Positions 7,469-56,677 of a stretch of 64,000 bases of DNA are shown piece by piece. The stretch lies in NCBI GenBank assembly GCA_028534125.1, contig CM052816.1, positions 71,984,001 through 72,048,000 of the forward strand, read 5' to 3'. The translations under genes were made by a program, and so were the position numbers. The DNA comes from Lama glama (taxonomy: Eukaryota). The number at the start of each line of letters is the position of its first letter. The first letter of the stretch is position 1. The notes beneath the pieces were generated by a model, which had not been told where the DNA came from, ran no database searches, and worked only from the letters and a program-made list of their open reading frames with translations.

Positions 7469-7896
7469 TGTGTTCATTTCCTAAGACTACCATAACAAAA
7501 CACAAACTGTGTGCCTTCCAACAACAGAAATGTATTGTGGTCTATTGGAGAATATAGTGTTTCTCAGTTCTGGAGGCTGGAAGTCTGAGATCAAGGTGTC
7601 AGCAGAGCTGTGTTTCCTCTGAAACCTGTAGGGGAGACTACTTCCGTGCCTCTTCCCAGCCTCTGGTGGGTACCAGCCACCTTTGGTGCTCCTTGGCTTG
7701 CGACGGCAACACTTTCGTCTCTGCCTCTGAGGTCACATGGCTTTCTCCCCTGGGTTAAGGGCCGATCCTACTCCAGTATGACCTTATCTTAAATAATTAC
7801 ATCTGCAACAACCTTATTTCCAAGTAAGTTCACTTTTGAGGTACTGGAGGTTATGACTCACCATATCTTTTGAGGAAATACAATTCAACCCTTAAT
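7469..7896 (-). mobile_element. MLT1 (B/C-like) MaLR solo LTR
   Basis: 'cagttctggaggctggaagtctgagatcaaggtgtcagcag' through 'acaattcaacccttaata'. Confidence 0.85.
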
Positions 7897-11568: not shown

Positions 11569-11665
11569 GAAAAAAAGACACATGTCACTTGCCAAGTGAA
11601 GTATTCACATAATAATCCACATTATGTGAATACTTCACTTGGCAAGTGACATGTGTCTTTTTTTC
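11569..11665. repeat. Perfect 45-bp inverted repeat with 7-nt spacer
   Basis: 11569-11613 GAAAAAAAGACACATGTCACTTGCCAAGTGAAGTATTCACATAAT is the exact reverse complement of 11621-11665. The spacer is AATCCAC. Confidence 0.97.
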
Positions 11666-17157: not shown

Positions 17158-17538
17158 TGTGTTAGTTTGCTAGGGTTACTGCCGATGGGTGACTTAGCAG
17201 AAATTTATTGTCTCACAGCTCTGGAGGCTGGAAGTCGGAACTCAAGGTGTCGGTTTTTTCTGAGGTTTGTGTTTCAGGCCTCTCTCCAGCCTTAGATGAC
17301 CATCTTCTCCTTTTGTCTCTTTATATCGTCTTCTCTCTGTGTCTATCCCTGTGACCAAATTTCCCCATTTTATTTAAGGGCATCGGTCATTTGCATTAAG
17401 GGCCCGTACGAAAAGGCCCACACATTTTAATTTGATTACATCTACAATGACCCTGTCTCAAAATGAGGTCATATTTGTGGTCCTAGGGGTTTAGACTCCA
17501 ACATATCATTTTTCAGGGACATGATTCAACCCATAACA
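17158..17538 (-). mobile_element. MLT1 (A/B-like) solo LTR
   Basis: Runs TGTGTTAGTTTGCTAGGG...GATTCAACCCATAACA. The 5-bp TSD is catga/catgg. Confidence 0.85.
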
Positions 17539-18395: not shown

Positions 18396-18570
18396 AATTT
18401 TTTTATATTTTATTGAAGTATAGTTAGTTTATAATGTGTCAGTTTCTGGTGCACAGCATGTTTCAGTCACACATGTACATACATATATTCGTTTTCATAT
18501 TCTTTTTCATTATAGGTTACTACAAGATATTGACTATAGCTCCCTGTGCTATGCAGTAGAAACTTGTTTA
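18396..18570 (-). mobile_element. Very short L1 3'UTR insertion, same family as 828-1596
   Basis: Closely similar to 845-1010 ('ttgaagtatagt...catacatatattcgttttcatatt...tataggttac...tccctgtgc'). Confidence 0.85.
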
Positions 18571-36502: not shown

Positions 36503-39500
36503 ATAAAATCAAAAGTCCTATTTAAAGCTTTACTGCTATAGAACAAGAACTACTCTCCCCCCCCCTTTTTTCCCACAAAGAGTTATGATGTTTTTCTGAT
36601 AGAGTCCTGACAATCTTTGCAGATGGTAGAATACTGAGTCAGCTAAATCTGGCCTTTTCATTCCTTCATGACATTTCTTTAGAATAATAAGGAAGAAGAG
36701 CAGTGTGGAAAGAAGTGGATAGTATCCAGTTCCAGAATGTCTTGAGGTCACTCACAGAAATGTTGTACACCAATAACAACAGGTTGACCAAAAGGGAGAT
36801 GGGGTTTATGTGGCTGAGGAGGAAGGGGGGAGAGAGAAAATAACAGTAAGAAATTAAGCTAAAGGTGGAACAGAGAAGCAATACCTCATAACTATTCTAA
36901 ATCTAGATGTCAATAAGCATTTGAAAACCTTGAAGTCATTCTGCTTGGTTTTGTGTCAGACCAGCAGCAGGGGCCATATTTTTTTCTCCCAAATACAACC
37001 ATCAGCTTTGCTATAGATCTTCAAACCATGCAAGTAAATGGTCGAGTGAAGCTCATTTAATCATGTAAGAGTTTATGCTGAAATTTACTTCAGGCAGAAA
37101 AGTTAGAAGTACAAGGATCTGTCAAATTTTCCAGGGACTTATAATAAATTCTTAGAGTGTGAAACCACCTCTCTCTGTTGTTTGTAGATAACGACTGTTC
37201 AAAGCGGTCTGCGTATTTGAGAAATAAAGTGAATGGAAAATTTCTCTAAGTAGGGCATATTTCTGATGACTAAGATTAGTACATTATGTCTGCTCCAGAC
37301 TGAGTCAATAATGGATCGTTCCCAGATAAGCACATAAAAATGGGTTATATGTAGCTTAGAGCTGAAGTTGCAGACATTAATTTGCTAATTTACTTCAGTA
37401 CAGAACTGGTCCAAAGAAACCAAAAAAAACCTCCCAAAAGACCCCCGAAATAACTAAGTAGGAGAGCATGACTTTCATCAAGGCAATCACAGTAAGGTCA
37501 TTAATAATTGCACAAAATGAGTAACTCATTCATAGTTCCTGTGGAGCAGTAAACGATGTAGTACCTGAATTGCATAATGTCGTTTATCTTTCAAGTTTTT
37601 TTTTTTTTCATGATCCAAGTAAAGAATTGAGTACTCATTACGTGAGAAGAAAATCAAAACTAGAGAATGTCATAAATTTATAGGGAGCTACACTGGAAAA
37701 CACATCTTGAAAGTGACACAGCTCTAACTGATGAGAAAAATCTCTTACGTTGATAGCAAACAGTTTTTCATTAAAGATTTTAAGCCTTGTGATTTCATTT
37801 TTAACAAAAGTGCCACTGTTTTTTTTTAAAGGTCTCAGAGAAGTTTGAATAGCAATTTCCAAAATCCAGAGAAATTGAAGTCAAACACTATTTTATGTGG
37901 AATTGAAATGAGCACATTTTGCCTCCTTCCTAGGAGAACTTAAGACAGTAGGGCCGTGTTTTAAACAATAAACATTTGAGAATGATAGAGCTTTTCAAAG
38001 TACAGGTAAAACTGTAAGATGGAAGTGAAAAATCACAACCTTCCTCTCGTGAAAATGGTAATTATCATTTACTTGAAACTCTCTGACTTACAATGCGTAA
38101 GAGGCCAATGATAGCAAAAGGCTGCAGAGGGTGGAGGATAGGGGGAGGTGAATTCTTGGGGTGGAAGGTGTTCCAGAGATGAAACCAGAAATGCTCTCTC
38201 TTCCCAAGAGACGTGTTCCTTCAGGAAATATTTTGTATTGTAAACATATTCCTAAGCCAATCCTAGTATTGGCATAGTTGGTTAACACGGAAGAAATTCA
38301 TTGTCTGGAAGTAAAACCAAGAACTCAGGTGATGAGTCAAAATCCTCGCATCAAAGTATTTTGTCTCCTCTATTGTGCCTTTTGTTAGTAAACTCACACA
38401 GGTTGGTTCACATCTTTAGGCTCCAACATTTAAGTTGTCAATGCCAGAAAGTCTCTTGTCTAAATATTTACTAAGCTGAGGAGAAGAAAACAGAACATAC
38501 AAGAAAGATTTCTTGAAGTTGAAAAAAAAAATCACTTCATTGAAATATTTTATTGCTCTGATTCATCTATAAAAAGTCCTCCACTTCAATAGTTATTTAC
38601 ATCTTGCAATTCTTCTCCTTTTTTTTTTTCCCTTACCTCAATGGCAAGGCAAATATTCCATAAACTCTGGTGGAGTAAAGAAACTCCTCTGACAGGTTCC
38701 TGGATTTTCTACTCAATCATGTTCTATCAGATCAAGGTAAAAGTGCTTCTCTGAAGTTTGGGGCCCCATGACAGAAAGTGTAACCAAGTATTGGTTGGAG
38801 GGTTGTGTTCATATGTCCAAGCCACAAGGATTGTCAGTAGAACATAGGAAAATTCTCTCCACCACATTTTCACTTAGAATCTGCATACAGTTTCCATCTC
38901 AAATTCATTTGAGATAATCTCCTCAACTCATAAGGTTGAGAACAAAACCTAAAATTATTATTGTCTTTGTTGAAGCAGACATATTTTCCAAATAGGATCC
39001 CTGCTTTTCTGTCAAGTAGAGCTGGAAGGTCCTTCAGAAATCATCTAGTCCAGTGGTTTCCAAGCTTTTTAGTGTAAACTCCCTTTTATCAAATGGAAAT
39101 CTTATCCCAAATTCTGATCTATACGATGATCTGGAAGTGATGTTGTCATGGTTGAAACAGAAAGAAATCTACCTGCCCCGGTCTCTCATTTCCAACTGGA
39201 AACATCATCACATCTTCAGGATCTAAAGCCCTGGAGAATGAATGTGCTTTGAAAGCAACTGATCTCCTCTTTCATTTTACAGACAAAGGAGTGTTAATCT
39301 GCTCCCCTGGTGAGAGGAGCACGGCCCACATCTACTGAACACACCCATTACACACCTGTGCTCTTATTACATGATCTCTTCTTATTTTTTCCTTTTTCTC
39401 CTGGTTTCTTGTTTCCCCACAGCAAAACTGAGTTGGTTACCTCTGTGGGTCTGTTCCACACACAACGAAGAGAGTTGGGGTTTGTGGACAAAATAGAAAA

Positions 39501-39589
39501 ATGTAAAATGTATACCATAAATAAGATTTAGCCACCCACAAGTCAATTATAGAAAGAGGAGATTAAACAAGGGTGGAAGAAATTCAGAA

Positions 39590-39750
39590 CAGCAATTCTC
39601 AGACGTTTGGTTTCACTTCAACATGTTCAAAGTTGTTAAGGACCCCAAAAACCTTTAGTTCACTTGGGTAAAACACCTCTTTGTTGTTTACTGTAATAAT
39701 AAATAAAACTGAGAAACAAGAGATAAATATCATTTCAAGTAAATAAACAC
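39590..39750 (+). mobile_element. hAT-Charlie terminal fragment
   Basis: 'cagcaattctcagacgtttggtttc...gttaaggaccccaaaaacctttagttcacttgggt...aaataaaactgagaaac' resembles a Charlie-family 5' end. Confidence 0.5.
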
Positions 39751-40011
39751 AAGCGAGGCAAAGAGAGAAAGCTTACTGCCACCACTCTACCTGCAAAATG
39801 TGAAAGAAGGTCATTATTACATGAAGGAAAAGCCAGCAGAAAGATGTCATCGTTTCGGCTCATCTTAGTTCCGTAGAACAGGCAGCGTTTCCATAATTCC
39901 AACATGGAATACCTGTGAGCAAATGCAACAGTGCAAGAAATCTATTTTGCTTAGGGAGAAAATTAACTCTTTAAGGGCTTTTGTTATTTGTTATAATCTG
40001 TGATTATTTTT

Positions 40012-40905
40012 GGTTCTAGGTTCTTTCACTGTAAATCTCTTTGCTGTAGACATTTTTTCTGCAAACATTTTCATTGCATAACTAATTGCCATAAGGCAGT
40101 TTTATACTGTAAAAGATAAAATAGCTGTTTGACAGTTTGGATTCCTTTCTTGATTGTCACAGTACTCCTGTTTTTATATTGCTTAAATCTTAGCCCTCAT
40201 AATGGCCTATGCAGTGACGAGTAGACATGGTGGTCTTAAAATAGTGGGTAACCACCACGTATATAAATTTGATAGGAAACACGCTGATAAAACTTATAGG
40301 AAGTATGAAATAAGAGAATGTAAAGCCAGATTGCACACCTTACAAGAAAATAATAACATCAGTTTGCAAATCCTTTGGTGGATTTGAAGGCTCAGAGTTG
40401 AACACACATTTCCCGTAGGACTTTGAAATGCCCATCAACAGACGTATGATAATGTGCCAAGAACAGACAACAGGGTAGAGGTCTTCACAAAGCTGAGTTC
40501 CAAATGTGCATCCTAGCGTTTCAAAATGGGTACCTCTCTTAATGAAAGAAGAACTTTAAACAAAAAAGAAAAAGTGTGGCGCTGAACAAGGAGACGCATC
40601 AGCAAGCAAAAAAAGAAAAGTGTAAAATACTATGAATGAACAAAAAGACTTGGAAGACAAGTGCTTAGGTACAGGCCACGAAATAAAATCAGCTATTTGC
40701 ATAGTATTGCCATGAATCTACACACACTTGAAATATATGCAAATATTTCGCATTTTGCCATAAAGTCTTAAACGTTGTTATTCACTTTTCATGTTCCAAT
40801 ATGTTCTTTTTAAGGTTCCATTTTAATTTTTGTTGTTGTTGTTATTTTATCCTTTACAGCAAATATATCTACAGTAAAGATGCTTATGGCGAAAATCCTG
40901 GACCC
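40012..40905 (+). mobile_element. Internally deleted Mutator-like (MULE/MuDR) DNA transposon fossil with FLYWCH and transposase C-terminal remnants
   Basis: Imperfect ~53-bp TIRs: left GGTTCTAGGTTCTTTCACTGTAAATCTCTTTGCTGTAGACATTTTTTCTGCAAA, reverse complement of right GGGTCCAGGATTTTCGCCATAAGCATCTTTACTGTAGATATATTTGCTGTAAA. Translation gives SRHGGLKIVGNHHVYKFDRKHADKTYRKYEIRECKARLHT, then FPVGL*NAHQQTYDNVPRTDNRVE, HPSVSKWVPLLMKEE and YLHSIAMNL. Confidence 0.82.
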
Positions 40906-43900
40906 AGTTCTTTTTAACGTGCTCCATGCCAAGCATGTTAAATTCAATAGTCATCTTCAGAGTGACTTAGGACTCTGTCCACTGTAGATGCTGACTGTGA
41001 AACCTTCTTCTATTCTTTTCCCTTTCAAAAATGGGTTGCATGCTGAGCTCATCCACTTGCCACCATTCTCTTAATGTTTCCTTTGTGTGCTCACCGCCTC
41101 AAACTCTCAAAGCCATACAAAGACATGTGCCCACACAACAACCAAGTGAGGTCTCTGCAGGGGCGCAAGTTATGAACAGCTCAGCTCGGGAATGCTGGGC
41201 GCACACACACACACACTCATCCAAACCAGGCTTAGTCTCAGGAAGTTTTTGCTTTGTGAAAAGAACGCTTTCCCCAGTTTCACTCTGTTCAGGAGAACAA
41301 CCATAATGCGTTTTAAAATAGGAATGTAGCCATAGATTTTTCTAAGCTAATGGCTAAGAAAATGATAAATATAAAGAATGACACTGTATTAGATATTCAT
41401 GCAACCCTAGGTGAGAAAAAAATCAATCTTATGAAACCATAACCATTTTTCAACTTTTCCTTCTCAATGCACTGCAAATAATACATTTTCAACATACGAC
41501 AAATAATACCTTGTTAGGGGAAATAAAAAGAAGAGAAGAAAGAAAGAAAAGTAGGAGTAGGAGAAGCTGCAGAGATAAAACCTTTTAAAAATGTCATCAT
41601 TTCTCTTGCTTGCATCCCCTCTCTTTGCAAGACCCAATCAGCCAATAAAAATGTGAATGCTTTTAAAACTGAAAGAAGGTTATAAGAGAAGTAAGCTCTA
41701 TGATTACTTTGAAGCTTCCAGTTTCCAATATTTCTTTTTACGATTTGAATGTTCCTATGATGGATACACTAACATTTGCAGAATCTGATAGAGCTACCAG
41801 CAGTGAAATAACACATGAGCACGCAAACAGAATGTCCCCAGAAGAGGCAAGTGTCAGGTGCATAGTGACATACACCAGGATACTGCTGGCATTTAAGGAT
41901 TAGTGTAATATGGAAAATAGTGAGGCAAGCAGGGGGAAAAAACAGGTTAGGTAAATGTGTCCTGGAGAAATGCTAGTCTGGAAAATTTACATTACTCTTT
42001 TCATTTTTCTAAACTAAAAATACATAGTGTAGTTTGACTAGAAAAATACGTGTGCAGATTTTTAATAAGAGGCACTGGTCTGCCATGTAAATGACCCATC
42101 AGGGAACAGAGAAGAAAGGTGCAGCTCTAGAGTTAAAATGACCTCAGCGGAGGCTGACACAGCACGGAGGTGAGAATTTGCTCTGTTCTCTCATTGGTGC
42201 CTGCTGAGTGCTCCCGGAGGACTCGCCCCCTCCCGGTTAGTGCCTGGAGCAATGGCACCTCAGTGGTCTTGGGGTTGGGGGGGGGCTGTGGAAGCAACTG
42301 AGAAAATGTGAGTATAAACACATTAAATAGGACCAGAGGGGAGCAAAGCGCTTGTGCTGTAATTCCAAGCTGAGTTGTCCTGGCTGTGTGGCCTTGGGTA
42401 AGTCTGTGAGCCTCTCATTTTATCTGTGATGATAATAATACAGCCCAGAGCACCAAGATCAGGCACAGGACTGAGGAGATGCAATCTCCTGACTCCCCTT
42501 CCTTCTCTAAGGGCTACGTGGTACTCTCTGATCACCAGTTCAGTGACATGTCAGTTTGCACCCCAATATTCACAAGTTATATAGAATTTTATTACCAACC
42601 CTAACCAACACTTAGAACAAATAAAAAGATCTGCTGGAAAAATATAAAACTAATATACAGTCCCCACGTTTAGGATTCTCTCTAGCACATTTTCACAGGC
42701 TACTAGAAAAGTTTGAGTAGTTTAGTCGTTTTTGAGAGAAAATTGATCAATATTCTCTACCCAGAGCCATGGAGGGCATGACTAGGACCTATTATCAGGC
42801 TAATTTCTCTTTACTTTCTGTTCTGTTTTCTTTTATTCACTGTTTTTCCCTCTTCTGGCTCCAGAGGACTTTTTGTGTGTGTGCTGGGTGGGGGAAGAAT
42901 CGAACAATTTTATCGAGGAGCTTCCGGGGAGAGTCGAAGGGCTGGGAGGACAATTAGATTAGTCCGGCCAGGATCTCTCTAGCTTCACACTTGCTGAAAA
43001 AGCCAGAGGGCTTTTCTCTTGTCTTTGCCAGAGTTTTTAACAGCACCCAGCCCCTGAGGGGGTGTGGGTGTGTGTGTGCGCGCGCGCGTTTGTTTGGGCC
43101 AGCACCTGTGTTCTCTTTCATTTTTCACGTATTGCTTATACAGTTTCTTTTCTTTTCTTTTTTTATCATCTTGTAACTATGTGAGTTTCTGTTCTCAGCT
43201 TGCAAATAACTCTCAGGCTCCTGCTCCTACTGTGAAGCATGAAGCTCACTTGCCCTGGAGTCACACACACAGTCATAGATCTGCCTCAATCTGCACCCAA
43301 ACCCCTCCTTGGGAGAATGGAATGCTTCTGGGGTTTTCTTCCCAAGTAATTCTTGGCATGGTCGAAGGCTCTAGCTGTCCCTAAAGAAATTCTGGGTCTG
43401 GGCTTCCTGGCAAAGGGCCTCCGTGAAAAGCATGCCCCCAAGGAAACAAACCTGTTCTGCGGGAACTGCCTGGTCCCACTGGTTTTAAACGTCCCTCTCA
43501 CAGCTCAGAGAAGCAGCAGTGGGGCTGCTCTGGGAGAGTAGGAGACACTCTATCTCATACTCTCCTCTATCTGGGCATTGCTTATAAAAATTTATAAAAT
43601 GCTGTAACATTTGAGTTATTTTTAATCTACTTTTGGGCTGCGTAGCAATAAAAAACACAAGCAGTGATGAGGTGACGATCAATAATACAATTTTATGGCT
43701 GTATAACTAGCCGACGGGAGCTTTACTGTAAAGTCACTATGTCAGTCCAGGGACCCAGCAGCAAAATGCACCCAGCAAGCTCCTGCTTTTAGATTAATCC
43801 TCTTCCTTAATTAATCAAAATGTGATTTGGTGATATCTCATAAATATGCAACAGTACATAGGACCGAGGGGAAAAAAACACCTGAAGCTACTACTGCTAT

Positions 43901-45414
43901 AATTTGTATTTATTCCCTAAGATGGTGAGCATCCTGTTTCTCATCTTGTTTTTTTTTTTCACTTAGTTTACCCGCAAAATATCTTCCATATTTCTATGCA
44001 GTCTTTATAATTGTCATGTTTAGCAGTAATGCAACTGCTGTTCTCACCTCAGCAGCGGGATTCTTCTTTTTTTTTAACTTCATTTCTGAGTTACCCTAAT
44101 TAATATAGCATTAGGAGTTCTCTCTCGGCTGCATTAAACAGAGAAGAATTATTATTCTATTCGGTCTATGGCTTTGATTTAGACTTAGAAGCTCAGACCG
44201 AAAAACAAAACCAGACCAGAAGAAAACAACAAAGACCAGAAACTGACACATTGTGACTGACTATACTTTAATTTTAAAAGATACAAAAAAAAAGTAAACA
44301 AACATACACATGCCAATGGAACAATGGCAGAGAGCACTAAAGGACGTGTTTTTAGCAGTGTGCCCTCTACCACAGAACCCCATCCTGGTGTCTCAAGGTG
44401 GCAGCACCGTGTACTCTGGCCCCTTGGTGCCCTGGGAGATGATTACAGAGTCCCCTGGCCTCCAAAACAAGGGCAAGAAATGACCTTGACTGGGGCCAAA
44501 AGCACCTAACAAAGACTAATATTTCTGAGGGAAGCATTTGTGAAGGAGCCATGATACACTTGTTTGTCTTTCCAGCCTTACCTAACTTTGAGTCAAGATG
44601 CTTGAGGTGTTAACCTCATTAGTGTTTCAGCTGAGCTAATTTCTCTTGCTGACCTTGCAATGCTGTGTTAAATGATAGAAGGCCTGGTCAGATGGTTCCA
44701 CCAACATCCTCTGACAGTCCAGTCCAGGAATCCTTCACCACCCACACAGGCTTTTCAGCCTGGCCATTTTCCCAGGCATGACAATGCAGACAGAGTTCCC
44801 CTCCCATCACCCTCCACACAAACACGGTGAGTGCAGACACACCGTGAGGAAGGACTGGCACTGCTCATCCATGGAGAAAATAAATGATACAGTCTGTTGT
44901 TTTTGTAGCAAGATTCTGTACTGAAATTGAGAATATTTGGAAATATTTCCAAGTCTTCAACACAGTCAAAAATTCTTCCCCTAAAAACATAGTTTGAAGA
45001 ATTTCTCCTCTAAGTTTATAGAAAAATATTAATTTGAGGTGGATAAAAGCATGAAAAGTAAAAGAACATGATGTCATTTAAAAAAACTCTAAAAGAAATT
45101 GTGTACAAATATTTATCTGATATTTGGATGGAGAAAGACTGTTTATGTTTTATGTAAGGGAAAACCATCAATGGATTTAAGTCCATAAAGATTCAAACAT
45201 CTACATTTCAACATTACAGGTAAAATTAAAAGTCCATCAAAAAGCTGGTAAAATACTTGCAACCAAATGACATTGCTAATAACCTCAAACTATAAATAGG
45301 TAATGAAATAAAAGTAGCAATGTTAATTGAATAGTTGAATATGTAAAGATCATAAATAGAAAATTAATGCAATAGTAAAACCAAAAAGCTCACCAAAAAT
45401 GAGAAATAAATCTA

Positions 45415-55876: not shown

Positions 55877-56232
55877 GTCAGAGAAAGAAAAATACCATAT
55901 GATATCGCTTATATGTGGAATCTAAAAACGGGGACACAAATGGACTTATCTACAAAACAGAAACAGACTCACAGGCATAGAAAACAAACTTACGGTTACC
56001 AGAGGGTGAAGGAGGTGGGAAGGGATAAATTGGGAATTCAAAAATTGCACCTCTTGGGGAGTGATGGAAATGTTAGCTATCTTGATTGTGGTGGTGGTTT
56101 CATGGGGTATACATCTATCAAAAGTCATCAACTTGTACACCTGAAATATGTGTAGTTTACCATACAGGAATCATACAATAAAGGTGCCAAAGTAAATAAA
56201 TAAACACATCCTATAACAAATTAAAAAAAAAA
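55877..56232 (+). mobile_element. Chimeric L1-derived retroposed insertion (young L1 3'UTR segment fused to an ancient L1M-type 3' end), inserted in an L2
   Basis: 55877-56049 matches the reverse complement of ~1040-1215. 56050-56200 resembles an older L1M tail. Poly(A) at 56223-56232. TSD aagaaaattg(aa)tgca at 55863-55876 and 56233-56248. Confidence 0.7.
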
Positions 56233-56677
56233 AAGAAAATTGAATGCACTCAAGACACTCAAAAAAGAGGAATTGAAATGACCTGACTATAGATTGGTGG
56301 GGACTGAGTGGCAGGGAGGGAATGGGGGTGACTTGTCTCCTGGCTTGAGTGAACAGGTGGATGGTGGGGTTCACTGGTTCTTGGAGAGGAGTGCAAGAGG
56401 AGAATCGAATGGTGGGGGTGGGAACACTGGTTAGAGTTATTTGAGGTATCCTAGGAGCACCAAGGAACAGATGCTTGTTTGCCAGTATTTGATCACATGA
56501 ATTTGAAGCTCAGGGGAGAGACAGGGACAAGAGCTGCAGGTTTAGGAGTCTAACAGACTCCACAGTGGGAGATGGAGTCATCACAGTGGACAGTGCCTTC
56601 CAAGCAGGGTGTGAAGGGTAAAGTGCTACCATCCTAGGCGATGAGTTTTCAGTGTTCCCCAGGCTACAGTGCATTGG

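Follow-up and report, generated by a model that had tools for sequence, protein, structure and literature searches.

A fixed, non-autonomous Mutator fossil of very probable Phantom/Muta type in a llama chromosome

Introduction

The Phantom subclass of Mutator transposons (Marquez and Pritham 2010), as its features are given in the pertinent passages of PMC3169594 and PMC6446971, occurs in animal hosts and combines an N-terminal FLYWCH finger and a MULE domain with internal tandem units in the termini. For Muta1 of Aedes aegypti, an active element of 3,198 bp with 145-bp repeats and nine units, the available part of the published account (PMC5499845) describes a FLYWCH+DDE transposase whose binding sites are a terminal motif of 10 bp and subterminal repeats of 12 bp lying 3 to 4 bp apart and which cuts with formation of hairpins on the flanks, produces 8- to 9-bp duplications, and also moves a natural non-autonomous element, Muta1NA1, with three and seven repeats. 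In arthropod MULEs more generally, the catalytic residues are spaced 60 to 76 (D-D) and 120 to 135 (D-E), according to the accessible text of PMC13359780.

In 2019, doubt was voiced in the literature as to whether vertebrates contain MULEs. Their presence in mammals is nevertheless not new, given the 437 MULE-MuDR protein fossils, 374 of them already annotated, that Frith 2022 counts in human in the part of the paper available (PMC9004415). The human MuDR entries visible in the Repbase 2017 account are RICKSHA, RICKSHA_0, and Ricksha_a only (PMC5753468), and the accessible text of Dupeyron 2019 counts three placental MULE entries, cited to Ricksha reports (PMC6446971). Ricksha itself, in the section of PMC1431705 devoted to it, has terminal inverted repeats of 79 bp together with a captured ERVL/MLT2B piece. 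Finally, a horse MULE (Phantom, 2010) was, by Dupeyron's brief account, published with a FLYWCH alignment and had no detectable transposase (PMC6446971); the word "Equus" is absent from three supplements of that paper.

Here, we describe positions 40012 to 40905 of a 64,000-nucleotide stretch of Lama glama DNA (contig CM052816.1; "the window"). Very probably, this 894-bp segment (plus strand) is a dead copy, now fixed, from a non-autonomous subfamily of a Mutator DNA transposon of Phantom/Muta type. It retains the two termini and, of a 467-aa transposase, the beginning with the FLYWCH finger and the C-terminal quarter; both catalytic aspartates are absent. By its FLYWCH finger, its MULE kin, and its repeat-built ends, it appears to belong with the Phantom/Muta type. 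It differs from Phantom in being without the MULE domain, which its intact relatives do have, and its likeness to that subclass is one of features. Going by the published description of Muta1, the two share the FLYWCH+DDE layout, a unit period of 15 to 16 bp, and a terminal motif starting GGGTC; in the available text of PMC5499845, the Muta1 motif reads GGGTCTACCC, and the right end of our element reads GGGTCCAGG, with the first five bases alike. The unequal unit numbers of our element (about six on the left, three on the right) likewise recall those of Muta1NA1. Muta1, however, is active and much longer, with its 145-bp repeats, whereas 40012-40905 is a dead fossil.

Results

Extent, copy number, and setting of the element

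A preliminary description, made from the sequence alone, had read the segment as a MULE fossil with a FLYWCH domain, and this reading was borne out: both of its ends are colinear with intact FLYWCH+MULE proteins, and it is multi-copy. Contigs from whole-genome runs were aligned to the element at 80% likeness, a floor that hides most copies. Even so, 76 contigs from run X1 (the possible source of the window) and 82 from run X8 (another organism label) fell on the element, 72/76 and 78/82 of which, respectively, were less than 95% alike and hence speak for dispersed copies. Depth was raised in 40006-40923 only, with bins 39700-40005 and 40924-41200 represented by the single locus contig in both runs. 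The limits of the element follow from this paralogous-contig depth together with the matching termini. At the peak (40669-40719), contig depth, which is not to be equated with copy number, reached about 31-fold in X1 and about 27-fold in X8, and at position 40680, 21 contigs in each of the two runs differ from the window copy.

Runs X1 and X8 each contained the complete locus, with 0 and 3 differences, respectively, in 1,501, and organism F contained a piece inside the element that was 98.7% alike, with no F contig across an element edge. Since the whole locus is present in the former two and an inner piece in the latter, the insertion is older than these species. The region 39000-42000 was recovered under five organism labels at 0.86 to 1.00 of sampled words and under a sixth at 0.16 to 0.21; runs with a small share were left out of the evidence.

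The window has a vertebrate-type composition (GC, 0.39; CpG observed/expected, 0.25). A Pfam search with the 150 most GC-rich of its 552 frames of at least 45 aa gave no match, and neither did an Rfam scan of the window. The locus of 40012-40905 may be intergenic or intronic; of the two RNA-type contig runs, X19 was without any contig more than 95% alike, and X15 is possibly DNA. Nothing in these data points to a present-day function of the element.

Several other repeats share the window. L1 3'-end fragments, around 80% alike within the window, lie at 847-1208, 18398-18568, 44235-44289, and 55880-56300, in a pattern that we take to be cetartiodactyl and possibly camelid. Two old, related repeat pieces (7551-7895 and 17202-17536; 72 to 84% alike) are presumably MaLR-type LTR remnants. 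A perfect palindrome was found at 11569-11665 (45-bp arms, 7-base loop; z of -17.9 relative to shuffles); free of mismatches in an otherwise decayed landscape, it reflects either an inverted duplication of recent date or an artefact of the assembly.

Repeat-built termini and a candidate target-site duplication

The element had been credited with imperfect terminal inverted repeats of about 53 bp. The inverted repeat as such is genuine: 40012-40065 pairs with 40853-40905 over 39 identities (39/53), with 14 mismatches and 1 gap, at a score of 54, whereas 3,985 end pairs drawn at random from the window reached 50.5 at most (0/3,985 as high). Without gaps, the pairing (35/54) was the joint best among 1.68e8 window pairs lying 200 to 3,000 nt apart. 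Where the preliminary description fell short is in the nature of the arms, which are more than a plain 53-bp pair. An inner 17-mer pair (40107-40123 and 40843-40859; 94% identity) indicates that the left end extends to about 40123 and that the right end begins at about 40843. Moreover, both ends show a 15-bp period, with a lag-15 identity of 0.47 on the left and 0.56 on the right, values reached by 36/5,000 and 27/5,000 shuffles, respectively; the left-end value is reached by 0.14% of equal-length stretches of the window. Tandem Repeats Finder did not report these decayed units. Taken together, each end consists of a short terminal motif, a run of 15-bp units (about six on the left, three on the right), and the 17-mer. 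The left terminus (40012-40123, plus strand) thus holds a 9- to 10-bp terminal motif, the decayed subterminal units (40021-40110), and the 17-mer, and the right terminus (40843-40905, minus strand) holds the inner 17-mer, three units, and the terminal motif.

These ends bear on whether the element might be a Ricksha subfamily and, hence, belong to the MULE invasion already known from eutherians. In the sources available to us, Ricksha is the MuDR family catalogued for placental mammals; as with our element, its repeats are old, non-autonomous, and of the Mutator class. However, its 79-bp inverted repeats, as given in the section cited above (PMC1431705), contrast with unequal arms of about 112 and 63 bp and a paired core of 53 bp, a comparison of length only, in which decay may blur the ends. 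No ERVL/MLT2B piece is found in 40012-40905. The termini and the C-terminal peptide of Ricksha also seem to differ from those of our element. Overall, we consider membership in Ricksha very unlikely.

Flanking the element, the 9-mers at 40003-40011 and 40906-40914 (neither assigned a strand) match at 6/9 positions, or at 7/9 in the best alignment with a one-base shift. In these AT-rich flanks, a 6/9 match is expected by chance in 1.5% of cases at a fixed register, and several registers were tried. A decayed 9-bp target-site duplication is therefore only suggested, and the two 9-mers are weak candidates for its left and right copies and not a clean pair.

A FLYWCH start and a C-terminal quarter of a transposase

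Inward of the left terminus, a 5' leader (40124-40201, plus strand) matches the upstream parts of two homologous ORFs, P0023 (E of 6e-5) and P0015, and is followed by the ATG at 40202. From there, the plus strand encodes transposase residues 1 to 62, i.e., the FLYWCH zinc finger (40202-40380), including the peptide KTYRKYEIRECKARLHT (40289-40339). Both the ATG and the peptide occupy the place and frame that had been assigned to them. Residues 1 to 59 of the intact relative P0027, a 467-aa FLYWCH+MULE transposase from the prawn Macrobrachium, align to this start with 26/58 identities. The finger is damaged: its Trp and first Cys are replaced, the codons being, as described before, AGG at 40298 and TAT at 40304; there is a frameshift near 40358-40361; and the final H-x-H was removed by a deletion. 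The suggested HMMER check with the Pfam FLYWCH model (PF04500) gave an E of 6.6e-5 on 40202-40384, with 23.4 bits versus a cut-off of 23.6, that is, 0.2 bit below it; scores above the cut-off were obtained for P0027 and for two homologous ORFs, P0005 and P0007. The ESM Atlas places the finger with FLYWCH clusters at 0.93 to 0.94. A FLYWCH profile run on PDB sequences gave two chance matches only (E of 0.13 and 0.16).

The second retained part (40388-40732, plus strand) corresponds to transposase residues 354 to 467 and is interrupted by stops and by frameshifts near 40487 and 40627. Its alignment to residues 354 to 466 of P0027 (48/110 identical) scored 183, compared with 25 to 31 for 12 random window segments. 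The peptides singled out in the preliminary description, FPVGL*NAHQQTYDNVPRTDNRVE (40409-40480), HPSVSKWVPLLMKEE (40509-40553), and YLHSIAMNL (40694-40720), were all recovered as placed there. A conserved Trp codon has become a stop (40424-40426), and the catalytic Glu, whose retention had been claimed, is indeed still encoded (40478-40480). In most paralogous contigs, a Phe codon and a stop occupy 40727-40732, which indicates that the frame of the family ended as that of P0027 does. A T-rich 3' trailer (40733-40842, plus strand), recognised by its sequence and lying within the zone of raised depth, leads to the right terminus.

Since FLYWCH is the sole Pfam match and, according to the accessible text of PMC10027918, is also carried by host genes, one could imagine that no transposon is involved and that a fragment of some host FLYWCH gene (a retrocopy) sits between chance inverted repeats. 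The 3' part, however, is colinear with a transposase C terminus, the inverted repeat outscores every control pair, the homology of other loci ends at the termini, and the closest proteins are FLYWCH+MULE proteins, not host genes. On the basis of the depth edges, the C-terminal colinearity, and the inverted-repeat score, we rejected the retrocopy, which has hardly any probability left.

The transposon fossil, then, is 44 to 45% identical to P0027 in both retained parts, with no match between them. At the deletion joint (40380-40388, plus strand), about 290 codons (about 870 bp) are absent relative to P0027. P0027 has D190, D252, a CxxH at 273-276, W366, and E384, as assigned by analogy with Muta1 D214, D283, W401, and E419 (available part of PMC5499845) and with the spacings excerpted from PMC13359780. 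The D190/D252/E384 spacing fits the arthropod MULE ranges, and W366 and E384 lie 18 apart, as do W401 and E419. Asp190, Asp252, the CxxH, and the whole Pfam MULE region (residues 188 to 280) are thus missing from our element, in agreement with the earlier proposal that the central DD region had been lost and that the element is a non-autonomous derivative. The Pfam MULE model matched none of five element pieces (5/5 without match), as the region that it describes falls within the deletion; because that domain is exactly the lost part, reading the missing match as evidence against a MULE would mislead.

Structural comparison agrees with the transposase reading and adds little to it. The predicted structure of P0027 is weak (mean pLDDT, 56.8), and the best PDB match of this model was the ISCth4 transposase (E of 1.4e-4; TM, 0.24), presumably of IS256 type.

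Relatives

A phmmer search against 1.84 billion representatives returned 18 proteins: besides 1 repeat artefact, these were 4 fingers that look intact and, from ENA/Logan contigs, 13 short frames in a decayed state. The artefact, P0002, was the top match, a repetitive bacterial protein that we dropped. A profile built from homologous fingers led to eight long proteins among 3,779 candidates, seven of which combine FLYWCH and MULE; in the intact relatives, the MULE domain (PF10551) is above cut-off. The five long proteins with an organism name are all crustacean (Macrobrachium rosenbergii, Palaemon carinicauda, and Lepeophtheirus salmonis), and the Atlas neighbours of P0027 are mostly Arthropoda; none of the named proteins among these eight, or among six from another search, is from a whipworm. 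The ORFs XP_066969100.1 (M. rosenbergii), XP_068250292.1 and others (P. carinicauda), and XP_040575190.1 and XP_040571875.1 (L. salmonis) have the same start and the same C-terminal end as our element; compared as proteins, they are 38 to 45% identical to it in the two retained parts, with frames of 466 to 470 aa that, unlike that of the element, are intact. Among the sequences sampled, crustaceans thus appear to be the nearest intact kin, which does not make them the donor.

Two of the relatives, P0029 and P0031 (L. salmonis), are single intact FLYWCH+MULE frames that differ from the others in the first catalytic motif and in the region before the Glu; they are possibly domesticated or decaying.

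Other collections yielded little. No relative emerged from a phmmer search with a 104-aa read-through against longer proteins (0/12 candidates), from IMG/VR as a close relative (0/61 and 0/86 pattern matches), from JGI metagenomes searched with the alignment of decayed copies (0/91), or from a scan of GTDB loci (0/36). The JGI search with the alignment of intact proteins gave 4/144, with a DNA match to the element in L001 only, a metagenome locus that is 53% identical to P0027 and has 15-bp units at its 3' end. L002 (2501-3620) is a decayed full-length FLYWCH-MULE relative with many stops (31% to P0027 over residues 29 to 389) on a 49-kb low-CpG metagenome contig (observed/expected, 0.39); having no DNA match, it falls outside the family of the window element. 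L003 (1301-1666) and L004 (2501-2698), on high-CpG metagenome contigs, are near-identical decayed starts of FLYWCH transposons with repeat-built 5' ends and are more distant relatives.

A common deletion joint and spread in trans

The joint of 40012-40905 recurs in 4/13 decayed ORFs, namely, P0003, P0009, and P0011 (by alignment) and P0014 (by eye). Two others (P0004 and P0008) have another joint, five end or diverge earlier, and the remaining two, P0005 and P0007, continue like the undeleted protein, with P0007 completing the Pfam FLYWCH model. Contigs add two further forms: after 40380, one X15 contig departs from the window sequence and goes on with what reads like the undeleted form (the missing end of the finger), and another form jumps from 40132 to about 40330. 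Because one joint is common to independent loci, the deleted form must have been copied after it had lost catalysis and, hence, by a helper, which argues strongly for cut-and-paste spread in trans.

A full-length parent, for whose existence the one loose contig end and two short ORFs (P0005 and P0007) speak, would have measured about 1.77 kb; no complete mammalian copy was recovered. By analogy with the biochemistry of Muta1, its transposase would have attached to the terminal motif as well as to the subterminal units of 15 bp, excised the element with hairpins left on the flanks, and pasted it in with an 8- to 10-bp duplication; one deletion product that retained the ends might then have been copied in trans in the same manner.

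A similar central deletion was seen in P0012, a prawn-type element from an ENA contig in which FLYWCH is fused, with the frame preserved, to the stretch immediately preceding the conserved Trp. On the invertebrate side, a deletion of this kind had an independent origin.

Age and origin

In a FLYWCH tree (62 columns, 27 rows; P0023, P0024, and P0026 replaced their cluster mates P0011, P0014, and P0019), the window copy and the 13 decayed ORFs, which we infer to be mammalian, form one star-shaped group with a support of 98/98. Its terminal branches measure 0.15 to 0.48 and its stem 0.27, with 0.22 for a copepod pair. The star shape suggests a single burst tens of millions of years ago that would have been followed by neutral decay. 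Read as neutral decay, the branch lengths would correspond, very roughly, to 10 to 20% nucleotide change or some 50 to 90 million years, with an assumed rate of 2e-9 per site per year.

The founder probably reached the mammalian lineage by horizontal transfer from an invertebrate one. We favour such an entry because the copy, despite its decay, is still 44 to 45% identical to the prawn protein and because the available part of PMC9004415 reports no pre-amniote MULE fossils in human. The sister of the window-copy group among invertebrate elements was resolved in neither of two trees, and no donor is named.

That neither tree joins the group to a given invertebrate host is also compatible with vertical inheritance, i.e., a MULE lineage of long standing in vertebrates that persisted as far as the early mammals, without recent horizontal entry. 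Such a lineage might be hinted at by the decayed L002 on its low-CpG contig; our searches saw mainly called ORFs and would have missed decayed copies in other vertebrates, and Dupeyron 2019, in its accessible text, advises caution (PMC6446971). On the other hand, intact prawn and copepod proteins are themselves only 59% identical, a value against which the 44 to 45% of a decayed copy is high, and the star-shaped group suggests a single founder. We therefore regard vertical inheritance as rather unlikely and horizontal entry as the better account.

Discussion

Quite possibly, although we would stop short of calling it probable, this type of element has already been described, either as the horse Phantom of Marquez and Pritham 2010 or in Dfam, Repbase, or RepeatMasker under another name. 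A FLYWCH alignment without a detectable transposase, as recorded for the horse MULE in the brief account of PMC6446971, is what the deletion form reported here would give; most of the human fossils tallied in the accessible text of PMC9004415 were already annotated; and dozens of detectable copies should be within reach of de novo repeat finders. Against this, the parts of the Repbase 2017 and Dupeyron accounts cited above have only the Ricksha entries for human and three entries for placentals, and the main texts of the Osmanski 2022 preprint, Paulat 2023, Zhang 2020, and a camelid repeat survey do not mention MULE, MuDR, or Mutator (nor does that of Platt 2018 mention MULEs). Our literature search, which extended neither to subscription papers nor to Repbase Reports or Dfam entries, returned no description of the family of 40012-40905, and supplements may list it.

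We tentatively consider, as a reading with about the same standing as prior description, that 40012-40905 records a Mutator invasion of placental mammals that is missing from the catalogues and independent of Ricksha, in which an arthropod-type FLYWCH-MULE element entered horizontally about 50 to 90 million years ago, did not extend beyond part of the placental tree, and multiplied as several deletion subfamilies. No new mechanism or function is implied. Novelty might lie in the addition of one more family, in the range of its hosts, and in a transfer from invertebrate to mammal; horizontal transfer into mammals is a rare class of event (PMC7070016). If this reading is correct, restriction to part of the placental tree would have caused the family to be missed by human-centred libraries. 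Searches for MULE fossils, in turn, fail here because the commonest surviving form among those observed has lost the diagnostic domain. An old family of fixed insertions such as this one would, finally, supply presence/absence markers for placental phylogeny.
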